A stretch of 35,717 nucleotides of DNA. It comes from a virus. Its lineage: Duplodnaviria > Caudoviricetes. Within the stretch, counting starts at the first letter, position 1; each line of letters opens with the position of its first letter. Where the stretch lies: IMG/VR virus record IMGVR_UViG_3300006851_000004, positions 1 to 35,717 of that record; one strand, 5' to 3'. A program made the position numbers and the translations under genes. A model generated the notes under the pieces. The model was not told where the DNA came from and did not search any database. It was given only the letters and a program-made list of their open reading frames with translations. Shown here in pieces: positions 9,437-32,919 of this stretch.

Positions 9437-9793
9437 GTGGTGTTTTTTCACGGTTAGACCTCACTCAAACGTCAAGATAACTAAGTTAACCCGAAGTGCT
9501 TATTAGGCGAACAGCTTAGTTAATACAGTCAGCTTAATAGTTGCGAATACAACCCGATGCTCTAACCCACCCCCGTTAACATCGTTGCCTAACTCAATAC
9601 AGCGCATAAAGCGCCCCTAGGCGAGAGCAACAGCATAACAAAGGATGCGAATTTAAGCGGCTAAAAAAAGCTATTTTCGGGCTTTTTAGCTTTTTTACTT
9701 AATTACTTTAATATTTCAGTTTTGCTGGTATTAGGGTATTGAGTAAAGGGAAAGGGGGAACTGTACCCTTAACACAAACCTAGAAATAAAAGC

Positions 9794-9873
9794 AAAAAAA
9801 ACACTGAAAAAGTTATGAGAAACAAAGAAAAGTTTTAAATTTGCTGCATAATCAAAAAACTAAATACATTATG
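9794..9873 (+). promoter_or_regulatory. Early promoter repeat, copy 1
   Basis: ACTGAAAAAGTT..GAGAAACAAAGAAAAGTTT-TAAATTTG(9836-9843)..TAATCAAAAA..CATTATG. Confidence 0.85.
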
Positions 9874-10335
9874 AAGTTAGTAAAAATCGAAACCCGCAAC
9901 CTACTACACTTGTTATCAAAACAAGAGCCGAAAGTAATCGCCCAAACCCAAACCCATTACATTGAAACGAAATGGGGCGAATACGAAGGAGACCTAGAGC
10001 ACCTGGAAATGGTGTATATAGGTCACGCCCTACCAAACGAAAAAAACACCGTTGTAGGCGGAAAAATATACGAGATTGAGAAATGCTGCCTGCACGACGA
10101 CGGCGATTATTACATCGGGATATTAGAACTAGACGACAAGTACGAAGACGGATACGCTGTAGTCGATTTAAGCCCCGACCAAATCGACATAGTCAAATCC
10201 ATACTAGAGTGTTATTTCGGAGAAATAGAACAGCTCACAATAAACGCCACCGACGATATGGAGAGCGAGGCAAGGAAGTGGGGCGAATACAAGGGCGATA
10301 TCGAGTGCATCACAAATTATTACGAAACATTATAA
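9871..10335 (+). CDS. Acidic hypothetical early protein
   Basis: ATG at the end of the promoter repeat (CATTATG); rich in D/E/Y. Confidence 0.75.
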   Translation: MKLVKIETRNLLHLLSKQEPKVIAQTQTHYIETKWGEYEGDLEHLEMVYIGHALPNEKNTVVGGKIYEIEKCCLHDDGDYYIGILELDDKYEDGYAVVDLSPDQIDIVKSILECYFGEIEQLTINATDDMESEARKWGEYKGDIECITNYYETL

Positions 10336-10863: not shown

Positions 10864-11035
10864 TACAGAGAAAAGAAAACAGCAGCTAGAAGAGCTAGGA
10901 CTAGAAAAAACATATCAAGGCGGTTACAAGCTGAACAAAAACTTCGTCGTGGTATCGTCCAGCATAAAGAGAATGAGCCGCGAAAATTGGGATATGTTAG
11001 TAAGAACCATAAAAAAAGTTTCAAAAAAAAACTGA
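10856..11035 (+). CDS. Small hypothetical protein (59 aa)
   Basis: Overlaps the previous stop; MVNTEKRKQQLEELGLEK...; ends inside promoter repeat 2. Confidence 0.5.
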   Translation: MVNTEKRKQQLEELGLEKTYQGGYKLNKNFVVVSSSIKRMSRENWDMLVRTIKKVSKKN

Positions 11036-11101
11036 AAAAAGTTTGTAGAAACAAAGAAAAGTTTTAAATTTGCCTTGTAATCAAAAACAAAATACATTAT
11101 G
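11023..11101 (+). promoter_or_regulatory. Early promoter repeat, copy 2
   Basis: TTTG(11042-11045)-N19-TAAATTTG(11065-11072)...CATTATG. Confidence 0.88.
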
Positions 11102-12331
11102 ACAATCTACAAAAATTTAGCCGCAGAGTACAAAAAGGCAAACGAAGCCAAAAAAAGCAGAAGCGTACACAGCAGATTAAAAAAAGAATTCGGTATCGAC
11201 ATCAACGCTAGAGCGATTAAGGACTACCTAAGCCTGTCTTGGAATGAAATTGTCAACGGCGAAATAGAGCATTACTTTGCCGATATGTTCAGCCCTGAAG
11301 AAGCCGACCGGGCATCATCCATCATCGCCGAAATTTTAGACGAGAAACAAGATAAAGAGGAGGAAACCGAAACGAAAAACGAAACCCAGAAAAACGAACC
11401 TAAAACCACAGTAGGCAAAGATAAGTTCGAGGCTGGATTCAGCCTTAACCTACCAATCTACGAAATGGTAAAGGAAGCCGTAAACGAACACGCACCCGAA
11501 ATCGCAGAGAAACAAGCGAGCGAGGTGGAGCAATTAATCAAGGAAGCCGCCAAGAGCATATCGCCAAACATCATCAACATCAACAACGCAAAAGTAGGCG
11601 AAGTGAAAGGCAAAACACACAAGGAATTCCAAGAGGCAATGGATATAGTTGTTAGCCAAAAAAAGTTGTTTTTAAAGGGCGAATCGGGAACTGGAAAGAC
11701 ATTCATAGCAGAGCAAATAGCAAACGCGTTAAACCTTAAATTTGACACCATCAGCCTCACCGCAGGAATCAGCGAGGGGTATTTAATCGGGCGAACAAAC
11801 ATACAAGGCGAGTTTATCAGTACTTCATTTATTGATATTTACGAAAACGGAGGTGTGTTTTTATTAGATGAAGTTGACGCGTCAGACGCAAATACGTTGC
11901 TAATATTAAATAAGGCTATAAGCAGCAACTCTATGCCAGTACCGATGCGCACAGAAAACCCAATTGCTAAGCGTCATAAAGATTTTTACATCATTTGTGC
12001 CGCCAACACGTGGGGCAACGGAGTCGGGAGCGATTACACGGGTCGAGAATACCTCGACGAAGCGTTTCTCAACCGATTTTCGGCGGCAAAGTTGGAGTTA
12101 GACTACGACGAAGAGCTAGAAAAGGAATTATTAGAATCTGAACTGGAGCTGTTCGGCAAACTAATAGAATTGCGCAAAAACATTCGAGAAAACAAGCTAG
12201 ATAGGCTAGTTAGCACCCGAACAATGATAGACGCGATGAAGTACAAAAAAACTGGCAAAAGTATCGAACAGGTAATTGACAGGCTGACCGTTGATTACAC
12301 AAACGAAGAGCGAAAAAAAGCGGTCGCCTAA
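11099..12331 (+). CDS. MoxR/CbbQ/CobS-like AAA+ ATPase
   Basis: Walker A GESGTGKT, Walker B FLLDEVD, sensor 'ICAANT', 'LDEAFLNRF'. Confidence 0.9.
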   Translation: MTIYKNLAAEYKKANEAKKSRSVHSRLKKEFGIDINARAIKDYLSLSWNEIVNGEIEHYFADMFSPEEADRASSIIAEILDEKQDKEEETETKNETQKNEPKTTVGKDKFEAGFSLNLPIYEMVKEAVNEHAPEIAEKQASEVEQLIKEAAKSISPNIININNAKVGEVKGKTHKEFQEAMDIVVSQKKLFLKGESGTGKTFIAEQIANALNLKFDTISLTAGISEGYLIGRTNIQGEFISTSFIDIYENGGVFLLDEVDASDANTLLILNKAISSNSMPVPMRTENPIAKRHKDFYIICAANTWGNGVGSDYTGREYLDEAFLNRFSAAKLELDYDEELEKELLESELELFGKLIELRKNIRENKLDRLVSTRTMIDAMKYKKTGKSIEQVIDRLTVDYTNEERKKAVA

Positions 12332-12337
12332 ACTACG

Positions 12338-12362
12338 GAGGGGTTAACGCCCCTCTTTTTTT
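12338..12362 (+). terminator. Rho-independent terminator
   Basis: GAGGGG-ttaacg-CCCCTC followed by T7. Confidence 0.8.
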
Positions 12363-12371
12363 GCCTAAATA

Positions 12372-12429
12372 TTTTGCAGAAACAAATAAAAGTTTTAAAT
12401 TTGCCTTGTAATCAAAAATAAACATTATG
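12372..12429 (+). promoter_or_regulatory. Early promoter repeat, copy 3
   Basis: TTTG..AGAAACAAATAAAAGTTT-TAAATTTG(12396-12403)...CATTATG. Confidence 0.85.
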
Positions 12430-13206
12430 AAATCACGAATCATCAACCACCTAAACACAAAGCATTACATACACGAATTCCGTAACGTGAATGACCTGTA
12501 CAATTCCGCAACGAACACAAAGAGAGGAAAAAAAATAATAAACAAAGCGATAACCGAAAACGACAAATGGGTATTCGGAAAATACGGAATCGACAGCGTT
12601 GATAAAGTCGTAAATGGAGTTAACAGCGACTTTATAGTAAAAAAACAAGGCAGGAAAACAAGCAGAAAACAAAAAGGGCAAAAGCGCCGAAAAAAATACA
12701 GTGACCAAGGCGATGTAGATGTCATGAGGGCGTTATCAGGTTCAATGTCGCCATTCATTAGAAAGACAAAAGTAAAATCAAAATGTCGAAACGTAGAGCT
12801 AATAGTATCGTTAACTATTTCAGCAAAACACAAAACAAAAGACATAGCAGCGTTTTGCAATGAGGTAGCAGACAAAGCCGCATCCTTAATAAGCTCGGGT
12901 AAAATGGTCAAAATAACCCTGTTTTCATATTCAATCAACACCACAAAAGGAAATTCAAACCTGGTAACGCTAGTTAACCTAAAGGGTTACCGTGAAAAAA
13001 TAGACATAAGCAGAATATATTCAATTTGCTACCCAGTCTTGTACCGAGGGTTAATTTTAGAGTCCTACAACATAGTCGACGAAACACTAAGTGCAGGCTA
13101 CGGAATTCCTAGCCAAAGCACCCAAACCAGCAAAGATTTGCTGAACGTGATTGGAATAGATAATTTTGAAATCATAGACTTCAAAGAATGGCTAAGAAAA
13201 AAATAA
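12427..13206 (+). CDS. VWA-like (CobT-like) partner of the AAA+ ATPase, degenerate MIDAS
   Basis: 'GDVDVMRALSG..PF' followed by 'VELIVSLTISA' strand; adjacent to the MoxR-type ATPase; C-terminal 'GYGIP'. Confidence 0.6.
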   Translation: MKSRIINHLNTKHYIHEFRNVNDLYNSATNTKRGKKIINKAITENDKWVFGKYGIDSVDKVVNGVNSDFIVKKQGRKTSRKQKGQKRRKKYSDQGDVDVMRALSGSMSPFIRKTKVKSKCRNVELIVSLTISAKHKTKDIAAFCNEVADKAASLISSGKMVKITLFSYSINTTKGNSNLVTLVNLKGYREKIDISRIYSICYPVLYRGLILESYNIVDETLSAGYGIPSQSTQTSKDLLNVIGIDNFEIIDFKEWLRKK

Positions 13207-13664: not shown

Positions 13665-14376
13665 GATGTATGAAAAGAAAAAAATACGAGAATACAACAC
13701 AACGCCGACACACGAGTACCCAGGGGGCGAAAAACAAAAAGCAGCTATTCAGACTGTCAACGCACTAGTATCATTCCTGGGAGTTATGGAAACAGAGGGC
13801 GACGGCAAAAAACGCCAGCACTTCATGGTACAGCAGTTTATGCTATCAGATTATAGTAGATTCGCGTTTGAAGAGGTCATCGAAGCTTTCAAGCTGGCGA
13901 TGAAAGGCGAATACGACGGAATGAAAAGCTGGAAAAATACACGGTTGGTAGCTAAGTTAGACTGTAATATTTTCGGTAGAGTAATGAAGTGTTATGACGT
14001 GTACAAAAAACAAAACGCACCAAAAAAACGAACGCAGCCACCGAAAAAGGAACTTACTGAATCGGAAAAAACAGCAGTAGAAAACAGGTGCATAGAGAAA
14101 TGCAAGGCGGAATTCAAAAAAACAGGTGAAGTACCAAGCGGATATTCTTTCGTATGGGACATACTAGCTAAGCGCGGTTTGGTTGACGACAGCAAGGGTT
14201 TCAAGTTAACATTAATAGGCCACGCGAAAAAACAAGAATCAATGCGAAAAAAAGGACTAGCCGAAGTGATTAGGAATAACGAAAAAAGGTACGTTTCAAT
14301 CGCAAAAAGAATCGGCGTCGAAAATTATTTTAAAAAAAACACTGAAAAAGTTTTGAGAAACAAAGAAAAGTTTTAA
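13585..14376 (+). CDS. Hypothetical protein (replication region)
   Basis: 263 aa ORF; start uncertain; last codons overlap promoter repeat 4. Confidence 0.65.
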   Translation: MKKQAENKQLSTALETKPTKSRHYLAKMYEKKKIREYNTTPTHEYPGGEKQKAAIQTVNALVSFLGVMETEGDGKKRQHFMVQQFMLSDYSRFAFEEVIEAFKLAMKGEYDGMKSWKNTRLVAKLDCNIFGRVMKCYDVYKKQNAPKKRTQPPKKELTESEKTAVENRCIEKCKAEFKKTGEVPSGYSFVWDILAKRGLVDDSKGFKLTLIGHAKKQESMRKKGLAEVIRNNEKRYVSIAKRIGVENYFKKNTEKVLRNKEKF

Positions 14377-14407
14377 ATTTGCCTTATAATCAAAAACAAA
14401 CATTATG
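14332..14407 (+). promoter_or_regulatory. Early promoter repeat, copy 4
   Basis: TTTG(14352-14355)-N18-TAAATTTG(14374-14381)...CATTATG. Confidence 0.88.
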
Positions 14408-14632
14408 AAAACCATCTACATTAGAGAAAAACGAAGCGGAAACTACGAATTTTCAAACCGTGCGGAAGCGACGCACAAGTTTAAAAGTAAAAAAACTTTT
14501 AAAAAATGGTTTGACAATTGCTGCGGTGGATACCGCGGCAAATTAATCAAGGCGACCTATTCGAGGTCACAAGTATATTTCGGCGTATTCGATTTCGACG
14601 ACGCATGGAAAAAAGCAAAAGAGTTATTTTAG
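14405..14632 (+). CDS. Small basic hypothetical protein
   Basis: Starts at the promoter-repeat ATG; followed by a GC hairpin (~14640-14658). Confidence 0.7.
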   Translation: MKTIYIREKRSGNYEFSNRAEATHKFKSKKTFKKWFDNCCGGYRGKLIKATYSRSQVYFGVFDFDDAWKKAKELF

Positions 14633-16342: not shown

Positions 16343-16755
16343 AAGATGAAGCTAGAATACTAACAGCAATCGGCGCCGTGTGCGGGTGGTACACGGCGCT
16401 TAATCGCGGGTACAACAACATCAACGAAATGATGTATAAGCGACAGAAGTTGAACGGCTACACCTACGCCGCCACCGACGCGCTAGAGAAAGCAATAAGC
16501 TACGAAAACAAGGCGCAATACGAGTACGAGCGAAAAAAAGACGGAATAAGAGCGGCATATCTAGACAAGGGCGTAACGAAAGCGGAAGCCTTAGCGAAAG
16601 CGAAAACAAGCGCAGAAAAACAAGAGGCGACGCAATGGAAGTCAGCCGCTATTTCTATCCGCGAAAAAATCAGACAAGCAAACAGGGTATCAGAAAGTAT
16701 GAGCCAGCATATCGCTATTTTGAGAAAGGAAATGGAAAACACCAAAAAAAATTAA
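16339..16755 (+). CDS. Hypothetical helical protein
   Basis: 138 aa, ATGA-coupled. Confidence 0.7.
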   Translation: MKDEARILTAIGAVCGWYTALNRGYNNINEMMYKRQKLNGYTYAATDALEKAISYENKAQYEYERKKDGIRAAYLDKGVTKAEALAKAKTSAEKQEATQWKSAAISIREKIRQANRVSESMSQHIAILRKEMENTKKN

Positions 16756-16813
16756 AAAAAAACACTGAAAAAGTTTTAAATTTGTCTTGTAATCAAAAAC
16801 AAAATACATTATG
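16754..16813 (+). promoter_or_regulatory. Early promoter repeat, copy 5 (20-bp internal deletion)
   Basis: ACTGAAAAAGTTTTAAATTTG..TAATCAAAAACAAAATACATTATG; lacks the -33 TTTG/spacer segment. Confidence 0.8.
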
Positions 16814-17018
16814 ACAACTTTACAAAACAGGTAAACCGTCCGCAATGGGTGGAGAAATGAAATTGCGAGTACTTAGTTTTTACGCAGAGGATTTCGAAGA
16901 GCTAGAAAGCGGCGAAACAACAAAGGAAGAGTTAATTGAAGATGTAATACTTTTCGAGGGAGATGCAAAAAACAAGGAACTGCAGGAAGATATTTACAAC
17001 CTAATCTTGAAAGCTTAA
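16811..17018 (+). pseudogene. Acidic small protein, frameshifted near its start (or intact from ATG 16845, 57 aa)
   Basis: The repeat ATG gives only MTTLQNR*; the +1 frame is open 16815-17018 (..GGEMKLRVLSFYAEDFEELESGETTKEELIEDV..) and couples by TAATG to the HNH gene. Confidence 0.5.
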
Positions 17019-29159: not shown

Positions 29160-29372
29160 TTACACAGCTTCAAGAGCCGCAACACGAGCCTCTAAATCAG
29201 AAAGTGCCGATTTTGTAGCCAAATCAGTAAGTGCTGTTTTGTCGGCTTTGTTGTTTTGCAAATCAGTAACGTCTGTTTTTACAGCGTCAAGCTGACCTTG
29301 CGTAACGTCGTTTCCGCTTCCTTGTTTCAATTCCTCGACTTCGGGAATAATGTTTTGTGGTGTAACTGCCAT
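29160..29372 (-). CDS. Small coiled-coil protein with fibre-like motif
   Basis: 'KADKTALTDLATKSALSDLEARVAALEA'; ATG at 29372. Confidence 0.65.
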   Translation of the reverse strand: MAVTPQNIIPEVEELKQGSGNDVTQGQLDAVKTDVTDLQNNKADKTALTDLATKSALSDLEARVAALEAV

Positions 29373-29721: not shown

Positions 29722-29748
29722 AGTTTTGATTTTTAAGTTAAAAATTAG

Positions 29749-29820
29749 AGCTCCCGACAGGATTCGAACCTGCATAATCTTGGTTTGCTGCCAAGCACCT
29801 TGCCAATCGGACACGGGAGC
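29749..29820 (-). tRNA. tRNA-Cys(GCA), atypical (A33, no encoded CCA)
   Basis: Acceptor GCTCCCG/CGGGAGC with U73; anticodon arm CTTGG-CAGCAAA-CCAAG; T arm GCAGG-TTCGAAT-CCTGT. Confidence 0.85.
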
Positions 29821-29845
29821 GATAATACTTGCGTCTATCTGCGAG

Positions 29846-30214
29846 TTATCGGCAACTGATTTTACCACCGCACATCTTCATAAACCATCGGAAAGTTTGT
29901 TCTACTTCTTTTTGTGCATCTTCCAAATTATCGAATAAGTGTTTTCCATTTGATGGATATAGGTAACTGATTGTGAATTTCAATTCACCTTTTATATCCA
30001 ATTTTTTTATCCAAGCAATTTCCCAACGGCAAACTTTACCTCTGTAAAATCCAATATTATCAAACTTTCCTGCATACGCAACTCTTGCCCATCTACCCAT
30101 ATCATCATCTTCCATAGTTGATGAATAGCGTGGAAGCCATCGCACATCAGCAGCCGATAACACGGGTTTTGTGCCATTGGCGGTTTCGTTTTTCAATTCA
30201 GCTTTTCTGCTCAT
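29846..30214 (-). CDS. Hypothetical protein (cassette 1)
   Basis: 122 aa; starts within the attC loop and stops on the TTA of the core site. Confidence 0.7.
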   Translation of the reverse strand: MSRKAELKNETANGTKPVLSAADVRWLPRYSSTMEDDDMGRWARVAYAGKFDNIGFYRGKVCRWEIAWIKKLDIKGELKFTISYLYPSNGKHLFDNLEDAQKEVEQTFRWFMKMCGGKISCR

Positions 30215-30281
30215 ATCAATATTTGTTTTTCAATTTAACATTTGTGGTTTAGGTCGCCAACTGACACAAAGCCCGAAACCG
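29846..30281 (+). mobile_element. Integron-like gene cassette 1
   Basis: Begins at G|TTATCGGC (29845-29853), the exact reverse complement of its attC left box GCCGATAAC (30153-30161). Confidence 0.75.
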
Positions 30282-30289
30282 TTATGTGC
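30153..30289 (+). repeat. attC-like site 1 (137 bp)
   Basis: GCCGATAAC-ACGGGTTTTGTGCCATTGGCG ... CGCCAACTGACACAAAGCCCG-AAACC-GTTATGTGC imperfect inverted repeat with a bulged base. Confidence 0.8.
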
Positions 30290-30294
30290 CATTG

Positions 30295-30474
30295 CTACGT
30301 TGACCGCTTCGATTGAATTTTAGTGGAAGTTTTTTGTTCTTTTTCCCAACGCTCAATCAAAAATCCAACAAAACCTGAAATACTTTCTTTACCAAATAAA
30401 TTTTTTGATAAAGAACGAGCCTTCTCCTGTTGTTCAGGAGTAAGGCTTATTGTTACTTTTTTTGTGTTGCTCAT
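30295..30474 (-). CDS. Ribbon-helix-helix-like small protein
   Basis: 'KKVTISLTPEQQEKARSLSK..GKESISGFVGFLIERW'; ATGA-type overlap with the upstream gene. Confidence 0.6.
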   Translation of the reverse strand: MSNTKKVTISLTPEQQEKARSLSKNLFGKESISGFVGFLIERWEKEQKTSTKIQSKRST

Positions 30475-30710
30475 ACAAGTTCCCATTTGTGTCCGTTACT
30501 TGTCTCAATCACATTCTTTAAAGTCAATTTCACAAAATCAACTATTGATGGATCAAGTGTTTCAACTATGATTTTTAAACCATCAAATCTACACCATTGC
30601 AAGGAACGGTTGTTTTGTTCGTTAAATCTGCTTTTTACAACAAACTCAAAAAACTGATTTTCCTCTTTGTGCTTTATACCTGTGCTTTGGTATTCAAATA
30701 CTTGTGTCAT
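30471..30710 (-). CDS. Hypothetical protein (cassette 2)
   Basis: 79 aa, downstream of a consensus promoter. Confidence 0.65.
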   Translation of the reverse strand: MTQVFEYQSTGIKHKEENQFFEFVVKSRFNEQNNRSLQWCRFDGLKIIVETLDPSIVDFVKLTLKNVIETSNGHKWELV

Positions 30711-30752
30711 AATTTTATTTTTTACATCGTAGCTTCATTGCTAACAACACTT

Positions 30753-30783
30753 CAAAGATAAGTATTTATTTTGTATTTACAAA
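30753..30783 (-). promoter_or_regulatory. Bacteroidetes housekeeping-type promoter inside cassette 2
   Basis: Minus strand reads TTTG-N19-TATCTTTG. Confidence 0.75.
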
Positions 30784-30871
30784 CTATTTATCAAAAATAT
30801 TTTTCCCCACCCACAAAAAAGAACAAAAAACCTTGCTGCGATTGAAGTATCTGCTAAACAAACCGCAACGA

Positions 30872-31005
30872 GAGCATAACAGCACCTATGCAAAATGGCT
30901 CAATTCATTTCCAGTTGACAGTTTAACGATGCGACAAATGCGGTTTTCAAAAGAACTTTTGTATTTAAAAACCGCCACTTCGCATAGCCGCATCACGTTA
31001 TGTGC
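30872..31005 (+). repeat. attC-like site 2 (134 bp)
   Basis: GAGCATAAC-AGCACCTATGCAAAATGGC ... GCCACTTCGCATAGCCGC-ATCAC-GTTATGTGC. Confidence 0.78.
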
Positions 31006-32570
31006 AAGTGCTACGTTAGTCGTTAAATTGAAACATTGTAGCATTTAAGCCGTTTTAATAATTTTTGCCTTTGCGCTTTTTGCGTATGGTAGATAATTGA
31101 AAAAATGTGCGATAACATCAACCGTCCACCCATTTCCAAGCATTCTGTAACGTTGCGTGTCGGAGACTTCATTTGTGTAATTATCCGGGACCGTTTGAAG
31201 CCGTTCGCACTCTAAAGGTGTTAATCGTCTTAATCTATTTCCACAAATGAATTTTTGAACGTGATTAGTTAGGTGCGTGTCGGTTTTTTGGTTATCATAA
31301 ATTATAGTTCCTAGTTCTGATATTCCGGTCTTTTTTTTGTCGCCCCTATGCGGTCTAATTCCCCTGTCATTAATTGAAATACCGCCCACTCTTTGCAAAA
31401 CCAAATTATCCTTTGAAACGCTCGTCAAACAATTGGTTTTCCCGTCTTTTTTTGGTTCTAACCTTTGCTCGGTCGGGCTTCCATTTTGGCGGTCGCTCGG
31501 ATTGTCGGGGTTTCTACCTCGCATTGCAACGCAAATAATATCCATATCCGAATGAAGCCCACCAGAATTTCCACCGGCCGTAAAACAATTGCTTTTATCT
31601 TGGTTTTTTGCCACTTGCAATCTTGTATCAACTTTGATAAAATTATCCGAAATATCACAACTTGCCATACTTGAAGTTAATGTGGTCGCCTTTCCAGTTT
31701 CTTTGCGAATATTCACTTTTCCGTTGTTAAAATTTACTGCTCTGTTTTCAAAGTAATTAAGCATTTTATCACTCAAATAATACTTTTCCGGGACATCATT
31801 TTCTAAAATATCCTTTAGCAAAATCCCTTTGTCTTTTGGTTGTGGAACACCACATTTCAAATCATTGAACAAACCGAACGTTTTTAAATTTATATTGGTC
31901 CAGTATAATCTAACTCTATTTTGAGCAGAAACCAAAGCGGAATTTATGGTAACGGGTCCTATTTTTAGAAATTGGCTAATAACCGTTTCATATTCCTTTT
32001 TCATTTTCACGTTTTCCAAGAAAAAATAAGTCGGGTTCAATTCGTCTTTCAACCGGATAAACTCAAAGAACAATTTACTTCTTTCATCATCAAATGCTAA
32101 TTGCTTTCCTGCAAAAGAAAATCCCTGGCACGGACTACCACCAATCAACAAATCTATCTTAGGCAAATCCTTTGCGTTTATTTCGGTAACATCGCCAAGC
32201 TGTATCGTATCGGGAAAATTACTTTGAGTTACTTTTATGGCGTGTTTGTCAATTTCGGATGCAAAGTATTGGTTTACTTTTATTCCTGCCTTTTTTAAGG
32301 CTAATTGACCGCAGCTCATTCCGTCAAATAAGGAAAGCACATTGATACCTTCGCTTCCTTCGTCAGCGATTTTGCCACCGCTTAAAAAATTATTAAAACT
32401 CGTTTCGTTTTCCATAGTAAATTTTAGTTTTTAAATCCGCACCAGCACATAACAAGGGCTAAGCGTAATCGGGCAAAAGTGCCACGATTGAAACATTTCG
32501 GTAAGCTGAACTATTTGTTTTCATAACACGTATCGAGGTAAAATCCCCGCCTACGCTTAGACCCGAAACG
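30998..32570 (+). mobile_element. Integron-like gene cassette 3 (methyltransferase)
   Basis: Begins at G|TTATGTGC (30997-31005), the exact reverse complement of GCACATAAC (32445-32453). Confidence 0.75.
31045..32415 (-). CDS. C5-cytosine DNA methyltransferase (orphan)
   Basis: Motifs SLFDGMSCG, GGSPCQGFS, LENV, QNRVRLYW, RRLTPLECERLQ, MLGNGW. Confidence 0.95.
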   Translation of the reverse strand: MENETSFNNFLSGGKIADEGSEGINVLSLFDGMSCGQLALKKAGIKVNQYFASEIDKHAIKVTQSNFPDTIQLGDVTEINAKDLPKIDLLIGGSPCQGFSFAGKQLAFDDERSKLFFEFIRLKDELNPTYFFLENVKMKKEYETVISQFLKIGPVTINSALVSAQNRVRLYWTNINLKTFGLFNDLKCGVPQPKDKGILLKDILENDVPEKYYLSDKMLNYFENRAVNFNNGKVNIRKETGKATTLTSSMASCDISDNFIKVDTRLQVAKNQDKSNCFTAGGNSGGLHSDMDIICVAMRGRNPDNPSDRQNGSPTEQRLEPKKDGKTNCLTSVSKDNLVLQRVGGISINDRGIRPHRGDKKKTGISELGTIIYDNQKTDTHLTNHVQKFICGNRLRRLTPLECERLQTVPDNYTNEVSDTQRYRMLGNGWTVDVIAHFFNYLPYAKSAKAKIIKTA

Positions 32571-32578
32571 TTATGCTC
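32445..32578 (+). repeat. attC-like site 3 (134 bp)
   Basis: GCACATAAC-AAGGGCTAAGCGTAATCGGG ... CCCGCCTACGCTTAGACCC-GAAAC-GTTATGCTC with a bulged base. Confidence 0.8.
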
Positions 32579-32608
32579 AATTGCTACGTGACCGCTTCGA
32601 TTTAACAT

Positions 32609-32809
32609 TTACTCCATTCTTCTACCCCATTCCTCGTCCGATACTTTCTCGTACCCCATTTTTTTTAGATACTTATCAATCGTTTTCTTTTTAGCCATTC
32701 CTTTTCGGAATGACTGCAAGAAGTTACTAGCCGTTGATTGTTCGATTCCGTAGTGGACGTACCACTTTAGACGACTTGTTTCTTTTTCTATTATTTCTTT
32801 TGGGGCCAT
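32609..32809 (-). CDS. Small HTH-like protein
   Basis: 'GIEQSTASNFLQSFRKG..KKKTIDKYLKKMGY'; first gene after the leftward promoter. Confidence 0.65.
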   Translation of the reverse strand: MAPKEIIEKETSRLKWYVHYGIEQSTASNFLQSFRKGMAKKKTIDKYLKKMGYEKVSDEEWGRRME

Positions 32810-32829
32810 AGGTAGTTCTTTTACAGGAG

Positions 32830-32859
32830 CAAATATACATAAATATATTAATACAGCAA
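32830..32859 (-). promoter_or_regulatory. Leftward promoter facing the accessory island
   Basis: Minus strand reads TTG-N19-TATATTTG. Confidence 0.7.
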
Positions 32860-32919
32860 TAAAAAGTTATCATTTCTTTGAAAAACAAACAATTGCTATT
32901 CGAACTAACTTTGAAAAGT

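Follow-up and report, generated by a model that had tools for sequence, protein, structure and literature searches.

How does a gene of 122 codons come to begin inside a hairpin that resembles a recombination site and to end inside a core site? The question is raised by positions 29846 to 30281 of a 35,717-nt phage DNA (the window, meaning here the whole stretch of DNA analyzed). The window is a complete phage genome, with a 123-nt terminal repeat and a virus record rated 100% complete, and the 53 open reading frames (ORFs) scanned include those for a terminase, portal, head protease, tape measure, Erf-like annealing protein, exonuclease, and endolysin; a search of the window for tyrosine recombinases gave no PF00589 candidates. 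The reading that we favor, with a probability of about 0.76, is that the 436-bp unit is an inverted integron-like cassette, in which a predicted hairpin precedes the gene, is the likely substrate of a short IntI-like host recombinase acting at its outer AAC, carries a likely translation start in its loop, and has one arm that is likely translated as a neutral leader.

Cassette 1 (29846..30281, 436 bp) consists of hairpin H1 and the gene body and runs from the TTA at 29846 to the G at 30281. These limits come from homologues, which keep hairpin and body together and differ in their flanks at both TAAC ends, and from contigs, which branch at 29848 and 30284. H1 (30153..30289, minus strand) extends on the coding strand from the AAC at 30283-30281 to the GTT at 30161-30159, an AAC..GTT length of 125 nt, with spacers of 5 nt and 1 nt; its inner AAC (30159-30161) belongs to the core GCCGATAAC (30153-30161), and its outer G|TT lies at 30281-30283. 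Along the coding strand, the order is outer AAC, 5-nt spacer, stem arm, loop with ATG, stem arm, 1-nt spacer, inner GTT with core, gene body, and a complementary core containing the TAA. The 122-aa gene (29846..30214, minus strand) has its predicted ATG at 30214 within the H1 loop; codons 10 to 18 (ETANGTKPV) are the inner arm of H1, codons 19 to 21 (LSA) are the core, and the stop codon TAA (29846-29848) coincides with the TTA of GTTATCGGC (29845-29853), which exactly complements the inner core. An earlier sequence-only reading had claimed a start in the loop, one hairpin arm translated as the N terminus, and a stop within the core, and coordinates and codons agree with it on each point. Within the window, this interlocking of a gene with hairpin and core is confined to cassette 1. 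The predicted folding energy of the H1 region is -19.3 kcal/mol on the coding strand versus -14.3 kcal/mol on the other strand, and the putative translation-initiation region in the loop (30215..30230, minus strand) is A rich, with A at -16 to -12 and at -6 and G at -3. An AlphaFold2 model of the protein predicts a disordered leader (residues 1 to 19, pLDDT <50) followed by a small beta-sheet-plus-helix domain of unassigned family (residues 24 to 115). The body matched no family in Pfam, PHROGs, or NCBIfam; Foldseek returned no PDB or BFVD match at an E value of 0.001, the best VIA Z score of 5.6 speaks for neither fold kinship nor a new fold, and the best ESM Atlas score, 0.83, is a lead at most. 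Judged from its homologues, the body is a small phage accessory domain that occurs both inside and outside cassettes.

Cassette 1 belongs to a three-cassette array within a minus-strand island (29846-32860) located between the tape-measure region and the head protease. Cassette 2 (30282..30997) comprises hairpin H2 (30878-30999) and two listed minus-strand ORFs of 79 aa (30471-30710) and 63 aa (30295-30486), and its two cores agree at only 3/5 positions. Its inner core matches instead the core at 32570 of a hairpin-less head unit (32570-32620), and the tails of cassette 2 and the head unit are homologous (repeat D6), sequence relationships that suggest a past exchange between them. Cassette 2 may also carry its own promoter, as matches to TANNTTTG lie inside it at 30753-30760 and 30792-30799 (minus strand), ahead of both ORFs. 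Cassette 3 (30998..32570) comprises hairpin H3 (32451-32572) and a C5 cytosine methyltransferase gene (31045-32415, minus strand), whose separate start lies 36 nt past the hairpin and whose stop lies 46 nt short of the next core; as in cassette 1, the cores match perfectly (9/9), and a 1572-nt contig from run X2 covers 31004-32575 as a single piece. The fixed array head (32571..32860, minus strand), whose flank is retained in a relative with a replaced array, contains a 66-aa gene (32609-32809; phrog_26076) and a match at 32830-32837 to the Bacteroidota-type -7 promoter (consensus as given in PMC6847099), a putative promoter that would transcribe the array toward its entry site. This attI-like entry site (29828..29853, minus strand) consists of the coding-strand core GCCGATAAC and, after it, a half site that forms no hairpin (AAC-T, T at +10, G at +15). 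A weak hairpin at 29820-29850 (-6.2 kcal/mol) might be read as a worn attC, a reading rejected because the consensus of terminal sites favors an entry half site. Just downstream, in the fixed flank outside the cassette, lies a tRNA-Cys gene (29748..29820, minus strand); it starts 25 nt past the entry core and therefore would be cotranscribed behind the newest cassette. It was the only Rfam match in the window, and no RNA family accounts for the hairpins. Contigs of relatives also break or join near 29237-29259 and 29194-29223, where plus-strand tail genes meet the minus-strand island.

The host of the phage is likely a member of the Bacteroidota, because of promoter-like repeats with TANNTTTG, hairpin matches (17 Flavobacterium phage records), and matches to host genomes. 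A 100-nt repeat occurs five times (9783-9882, 11012-11111, 12343-12442, 14321-14420, and 16724-16823), each copy containing TAAATTTG directly before a gene start, and these repeats are likely host-type early promoters. Window-wide, TANNTTTG shows only mild enrichment (54 versus 42.9), and a sigma-70 promoter scan, which uses the wrong consensus for this phylum, showed no excess (8 versus 11.2 expected).

The hairpins belong to a well-defined class of sites. They were called by anchored arm alignment, as a cofolding scan misses sites whose arms fold on themselves. At 40 loci, 122 AAC-N5..N1-GTT pairs scored at least 12, compared with none in first-order Markov resampled sequence; the window hairpins score 19.9, 16.0, and 15.8, and 5/1 spacers outscore 5/5, 5/6, 4/4, 3/3, and 1/1 by far. 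The cores flanking a gene body match at 5/5 positions in 115/155 phage cassettes and 30/32 host cassettes (shuffled mean, 2.0/5), stems remain paired across diverse sequences, and G-T pairs mark the 5/1 strand (G in 96% and T in 97% beside the core). Host and phage sites have in common the consensus AAC-G..T-GTT and the core match. As in integrons, the predicted folds are single-strand hairpins with one favored strand. Canonical attC sites have central spacers of near-symmetric length. The sites described here, with spacers of 5 nt and 1 nt, do not, and, on the strand whose AAC coincides with the breakpoints, the arm that bears this AAC is also the one with the extra bases, whereas the rule set out for attC in the relevant part of PMC5027507 assigns extrahelical bases to the arm across from the cut AAC. 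The site called attC in the sequence-only reading is attC-like and not a canonical attC. Array ends without a hairpin differ in turn: AAC-T is found at 30/51 uncalled ends versus AAC-G in 140/141 hairpins. The 28 distinct phage AAC-T ends have T at +10 without exception and G at +15 in 75%, and 12 host sites lying 73 to 193 nt past the 3' end of the short integrase have the same two features (100% and 66%, respectively). The window site at 29847, in the entry site (29828-29853), fits this terminal-site consensus of the phage and host sets, and the contigs of relatives break there. An attI-like site thus lies at the array end, and we infer that it serves as the target for incoming units; in host arrays, the corresponding site lies 3' of the integrase.

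A candidate enzyme emerged from the host side. A scan of species genomes gave eight loci, three chromosomal ones having close H1 relatives with their genes on the other strand. At one locus (L173), an inverted cassette with the ETANGTKPV leader adjoins a tyrosine recombinase. This enzyme (P0048, a 236-aa fragment) resembles IntI at both ends and lacks about 40 residues of the IntI insertion: it aligns with VchIntIA in two blocks, residues 138-159 facing residues 180-243, and scores 185.5 bits against TIGR02249 (cutoff, 265) as a fragment without its N terminus. The IntI-specific insertion (I2 region) that helps to define an integron integrase is therefore missing. Matches to the short recombinase were present in 69/201 genomes of a phylum sample at an E value of 1e-50. 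We compared 16-kb stretches around the 20 loci that lie on longer contigs, among the 30 best, with 20 control stretches from the same genomes and found 56 hairpins in 17/20 integrase regions versus 1 in the 20 controls, with 50/56 lying 3' of the integrase. Relative to the 5/1 strand, the host genes lie on the opposite strand in 44 cases and on the same strand in 6, with 6 uncalled. Host arrays, in which 44/56 genes are upstream of and co-oriented with their own site, are thus classical in layout by sequence comparison, and phage arrays, in which genes do not lie so, are inverted; the antisense orientation that the sequence-only reading had claimed holds relative to these host arrays. Phage and host hairpins of 110 to 135 nt differ also in their loops, those of the phages having acquired a start: an open ATG is present in 135/167 phage versus 10/50 host hairpins, and an A-rich context is present in 74 versus 1. 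At L215-L234, the chromosomal arrays share the orientation of the short recombinase gene and begin about 100 nt beyond its 3' end; at L225, the hairpins lie 5' of it instead. Among viral contigs, no close relative of the L173 recombinase was found, cultured phages having integrases only 36 to 43% identical, and, of the three host genomes whose hairpins are closest, two (G001 and G002, both incomplete) gave no match to this enzyme at an E value of 1e-30.

These comparisons lead us to propose the following scheme. During infection, the short recombinase of the host would bind the folded coding strand and cut at the outer AAC, and hairpin-plus-gene units would move into the entry site or from one hairpin to another. 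The enzyme is taken to act in trans because the window has no tyrosine recombinase and viral contigs have no close one. The coding strand would be the recombined ("bottom") strand, a choice suggested by its expected exposure in single-stranded form during phage replication and by the near-invariant G-T pair beside the core. The array would be read from one promoter opposite the entry-site end, and the loop may act as an unstructured, A-rich ribosome landing site, suited to a phylum without Shine-Dalgarno pairing. Selection may favor compact cassettes in which an otherwise idle loop doubles as that landing site, which would make a cassette self-starting wherever it is inserted.

Core matching cannot orient a cassette, because it is symmetric and reads alike on both strands; the orientation of the unit is settled by comparative breakpoints together with the host arrays. 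Homologues of the 122-aa gene keep the upstream hairpin, and their sequences change at the TAAC before the hairpin and right after the TAAC of the stop. The 192 cassettes fall into 171 body families, and comparison of the 15 families with at least two members revealed 20 additional upstream and 19 additional downstream contexts but only 5 changes of hairpin; the upstream hairpin was retained in 15/20 context changes, and the last gene of an array has no hairpin behind it. Since the breakpoints share 4 to 7 nt, they locate the cut only to within a few bases. In cultured Flavobacterium phages, whole units are seen to be gained, lost, and reordered. Over the 10 kb compared, mumin6-1 and mumin6-3 are 99.9 to 100% identical apart from a 506-bp unit that extends from TAACGTT to TAACGTT and holds gp008, whose stop is the TAA of the second copy; the head of this unit falls below the hairpin finder's call and begins like a hairpin called in the record L178. 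In snork9-1, shared units occur in a different order. In a relative from run X3, both flanks of the array are kept and 2801 bases of other sequence stand between 29847 and 32569; contigs from run X2 diverge from the window at 29848 and at 30284, in both cases into one foreign stretch. The window region also occurs as an identical copy (L034), which, like a possible source of it (run X1), was not counted as independent. The Muminvirus and Lillamyvirus records (L175-L179) have 10 to 14 hairpins per 7 kb with three to four methyltransferase genes, in rows that vary between near-identical isolates. Phage-type inverted arrays were also found on short contigs in Woesearchaeota and Saccharibacteria assemblies (L167 and L172), which are likely misbinned phage DNA.

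The five hairpin changes deserve separate consideration. In three families, unrelated or distant hairpins are joined to a fixed body at the inner GTT, and four bodies were found under different hairpins. Such exchange could reflect occasional recombination of the other strand, which is known for classical attC sites (described in part of PMC5027507), or homologous recombination by the phage. It also raises a bolder suggestion, that the hairpin works as a movable start of translation, which is joined in frame at its inner GTT to bodies lacking a start and then carried from one genome to another by its outer AAC through the I2-less host recombinase. We hold this tentatively, at clearly less than even odds; if it is correct, the one hairpin family found on 18 bodies, the four bodies with GTT joins to different hairpins, and the homologues without sites would be snapshots of cassette birth, a process that could then be followed in cultured phages.

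Homologous exchange also contributes, because the phage encodes an Erf-like protein and an exonuclease and because some hairpins have arms from different families (L003 and L007). These same facts, together with the absence of an integrase from the window and the five hairpin exchanges on fixed bodies, would also fit a scenario in which phage homologous recombination does all of the shuffling and the hairpins are host relics kept as translation starts. We nevertheless regard that scenario as unlikely: the TAAC breakpoints share only 4 to 7 bases and have unrelated sequence beyond them, the cores remain complementary across the gene in 115/155 cassettes though they differ between cassettes, stem pairing is kept across diverse sequences, and the arrays end in an entry site of the host consensus.

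The sequence-only reading had further proposed that the site could place a stereotyped N-terminal peptide on unrelated proteins. In a scan with the inner arm, 9 viral loci were found, 9/9 encoding M..ETANGTK[PL]VLSA on six distinct bodies and 6/9 having the TAA of TAAC as their stop codon. Relaxing the scan yielded 70 loci with 72 matches, 58 of them distinct, and 50 bodies of at least 48 aa. An H1-like arm heads the protein in 55/58 distinct viral loci, with unrelated bodies, and 48/50 long bodies under such an arm are joined in one frame; the linkage of the peptide motif to hairpins elsewhere is thus borne out. The loop ATG is in the TTA frame at 53 of the 58 loci, a figure that is inflated, as is the leader share given below, because the phage set was gathered with H1-arm patterns; at 2 loci (L066 and L104) body and ATG are both displaced to frame 2, and the other 3 loci have no such ATG. 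Leader-bearing bodies include an HNH nuclease and methyltransferases, and in five of the latter (L050, L065, L096, L098, and L106) motif I follows the junction by 3 to 4 residues with no Met between. Both these junctions and the joint displacement to frame 2 favor a start in the loop.

Leader translation is not universal. Leader ORFs pass through the inner arm in 100/175 hairpins and through the outer arm in 12 (43 near edges were left out); with a stricter length requirement, 109/216 hairpins carry a leader, in three frames (64, 36, and 9), and the remaining hairpins head genes with their own start. The stop lies in the core in 39/104 leader cassettes and within 15 nt before the core in 53 more. 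Stop codons in the core are common in classical cassettes too, and such tight packing is seen in them as well.

With one leader family (21 hairpins) heading 18 distinct bodies, and with a single frame joining nearly all long bodies beneath the H1-like arm, the leader might be thought a functional tag for degradation, localization, or packaging that the site grafts onto its cargo. The pattern of substitution points elsewhere. Uncorrected for multiple hits, pN/pS is 0.86 for the loop-coded part, 1.44 for the stem-coded part, and 0.93 for the untranslated stretch before the ATG (51 near-neighbor pairs), against 0.12 for the bodies (18 pairs), and the leader differences are spread evenly over the codon positions (44, 45, and 52). 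By this measure, selection retains frame, ATG, and stem and not the peptide. The three frames used by the different hairpin families yield unrelated peptides, domain homologues occur without the leader, and about half of the cassettes have none. We thus give a functional tag little credence: since the peptide shows no protein-level constraint, the leader is likely a by-product of translation starting in the loop.

Another arrangement, in which the cassettes are classical on the coding strand, so that each hairpin belongs to the preceding gene and the leader is a gift from the upstream neighbor, would be compatible with the symmetry of core matching, with the five exchanges at the inner GTT, and with the unpaired bases of the other strand, which lie opposite its AAC arm as in a classical bottom strand (described in part of PMC5027507). 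We find it very improbable, given that in nearly every pair the sequence behind the stop departs right at TAAC, the upstream hairpin being retained in 15/20 context changes, that no hairpin follows the last gene of the array, and that host genes face the opposite way relative to the same hairpin polarity.

The remaining issue, the start codon of the 122-aa gene, was addressed with homologues (69 candidates, 47 of which passed, giving an alignment of 48 rows). At least 90% of the rows conserve W26, R29, Y30, and S31, all of which lie upstream of the downstream Met, M34, that had been put forward as the possible real start; a start at M34 is refuted by this position. Many homologues without a leader begin 5 to 12 residues ahead of the conserved W. 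Close homologues (among loci L010-L048) also start inside a hairpin loop, and the distant ones (L018, L035-L046, and L048) showed, by inspection, no hairpin site in the 200 bases upstream. A at -12 and -13 has been reported to stimulate translation in Flavobacterium johnsoniae (PMC6847099). Two observations count against a start in the loop: A at -3 is found at only 36% of leader starts versus 65% of 40 ordinary window genes, and a Met lies within the first 14 body codons in 20/109 leader cassettes. That the leader is a mere artifact of ORF calling, with the true start at M34 or another downstream codon, is hardly credible, for although M34 has A at -3, it lacks the A run at -12 and -13, a start there would remove the conserved strand 24-28 along with W26, R29, Y30, and S31, and a comparable ATG is seldom present in host loops. 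In a tree of 43 homologues (5/47 were left out as short or as lacking the W..RY anchor), the 16 leader-bearing rows require seven changes; a single leader clade is neither shown nor rejected (p-AU 0.07). Five entries (P0018, P0019, P0025, P0028, and L032) have worn leader remnants, or a 3' core without a 5' hairpin, and are possibly settled cassettes whose site was lost.

Taken as a class, the inverted cassettes with their likely translated hairpins are, on comparative sequence grounds, a real, integron-like but distinct layout. They would represent integron-like shuffling in a phylum with almost no integrons by standard searches, used backwards by phages that lack the enzyme; the part of the IntegronFinder 2.0 report that covers Bacteroidetes names one complete integron (PMC9024848). 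Recurring N-terminal peptides on unrelated phage proteins would in these cases be translated DNA structure, which bears on annotation and homology searches. The methyltransferase-rich cargo makes cassette shuffling a candidate means of tuning antirestriction. In the relevant portion of their study of Muminvirus isolates, Nilsson et al. (2020) show one methyltransferase tracking host plating efficiency and do not name an integron (PMC7077304). With cultured phage-host pairs that carry arrays, the joining of genes to att sites and the need for the IntI insertion become testable. Our literature search, which covered few subscription journals, returned no description of inverted, translated att sites.

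Among known systems, the array works like an integron cassette array. With three hairpins in 2.4 kb and no integrase, it may also be compared with a CALIN, defined by at least two neighboring attC sites without a nearby integrase, but its sites are noncanonical. CALINs without an integrase and carrying DNA methyltransferases have been reported in virulent phages, including Polaribacter phage P12002L (Qi et al., 2023; PMC9892861), and the pertinent sections of that article do not describe an inverted layout, translated sites, or a non-IntI recombinase. P12002L_attC1 precedes a methyltransferase on the coding strand and resembles the H1 site family; according to the same sections, it was the only one of six sites without verifiable recombination by IntI1, which would fit a different enzyme but is a single negative. 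For translation, the nearest analogue is attI1 ORF-11: ORF-11, ORF-17, and ORF-18 of attI1 and short attC ORFs provide translation signals, with a stop in the core, in the account given in part of PMC8876359. There, the signals lie in the fixed platform or the upstream neighbor and act mostly by coupling, whereas the predicted start of the phage cassette lies within its own traveling site and is fused in frame. In sedentary chromosomal integrons, too, one site family, the VCR, accompanies many unrelated genes, as the phage hairpins do, but a VCR follows its gene and does not provide its start, whereas the phage hairpin precedes it. Integrons (IntI, attI, and attC, as in class 1 or in Vibrio cholerae with VchIntIA, PDB 2a3v) likewise have cassettes bounded by complementary AAC/GTT cores. 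Their hairpin sites, too, are enriched for G-T pairs on one strand, their entry site forms no hairpin, the units of their arrays are gained, lost, and reordered, and they use a related tyrosine recombinase. The phage array differs from them in three defining features: the integrase insertion, the site geometry, and the orientation of the genes.
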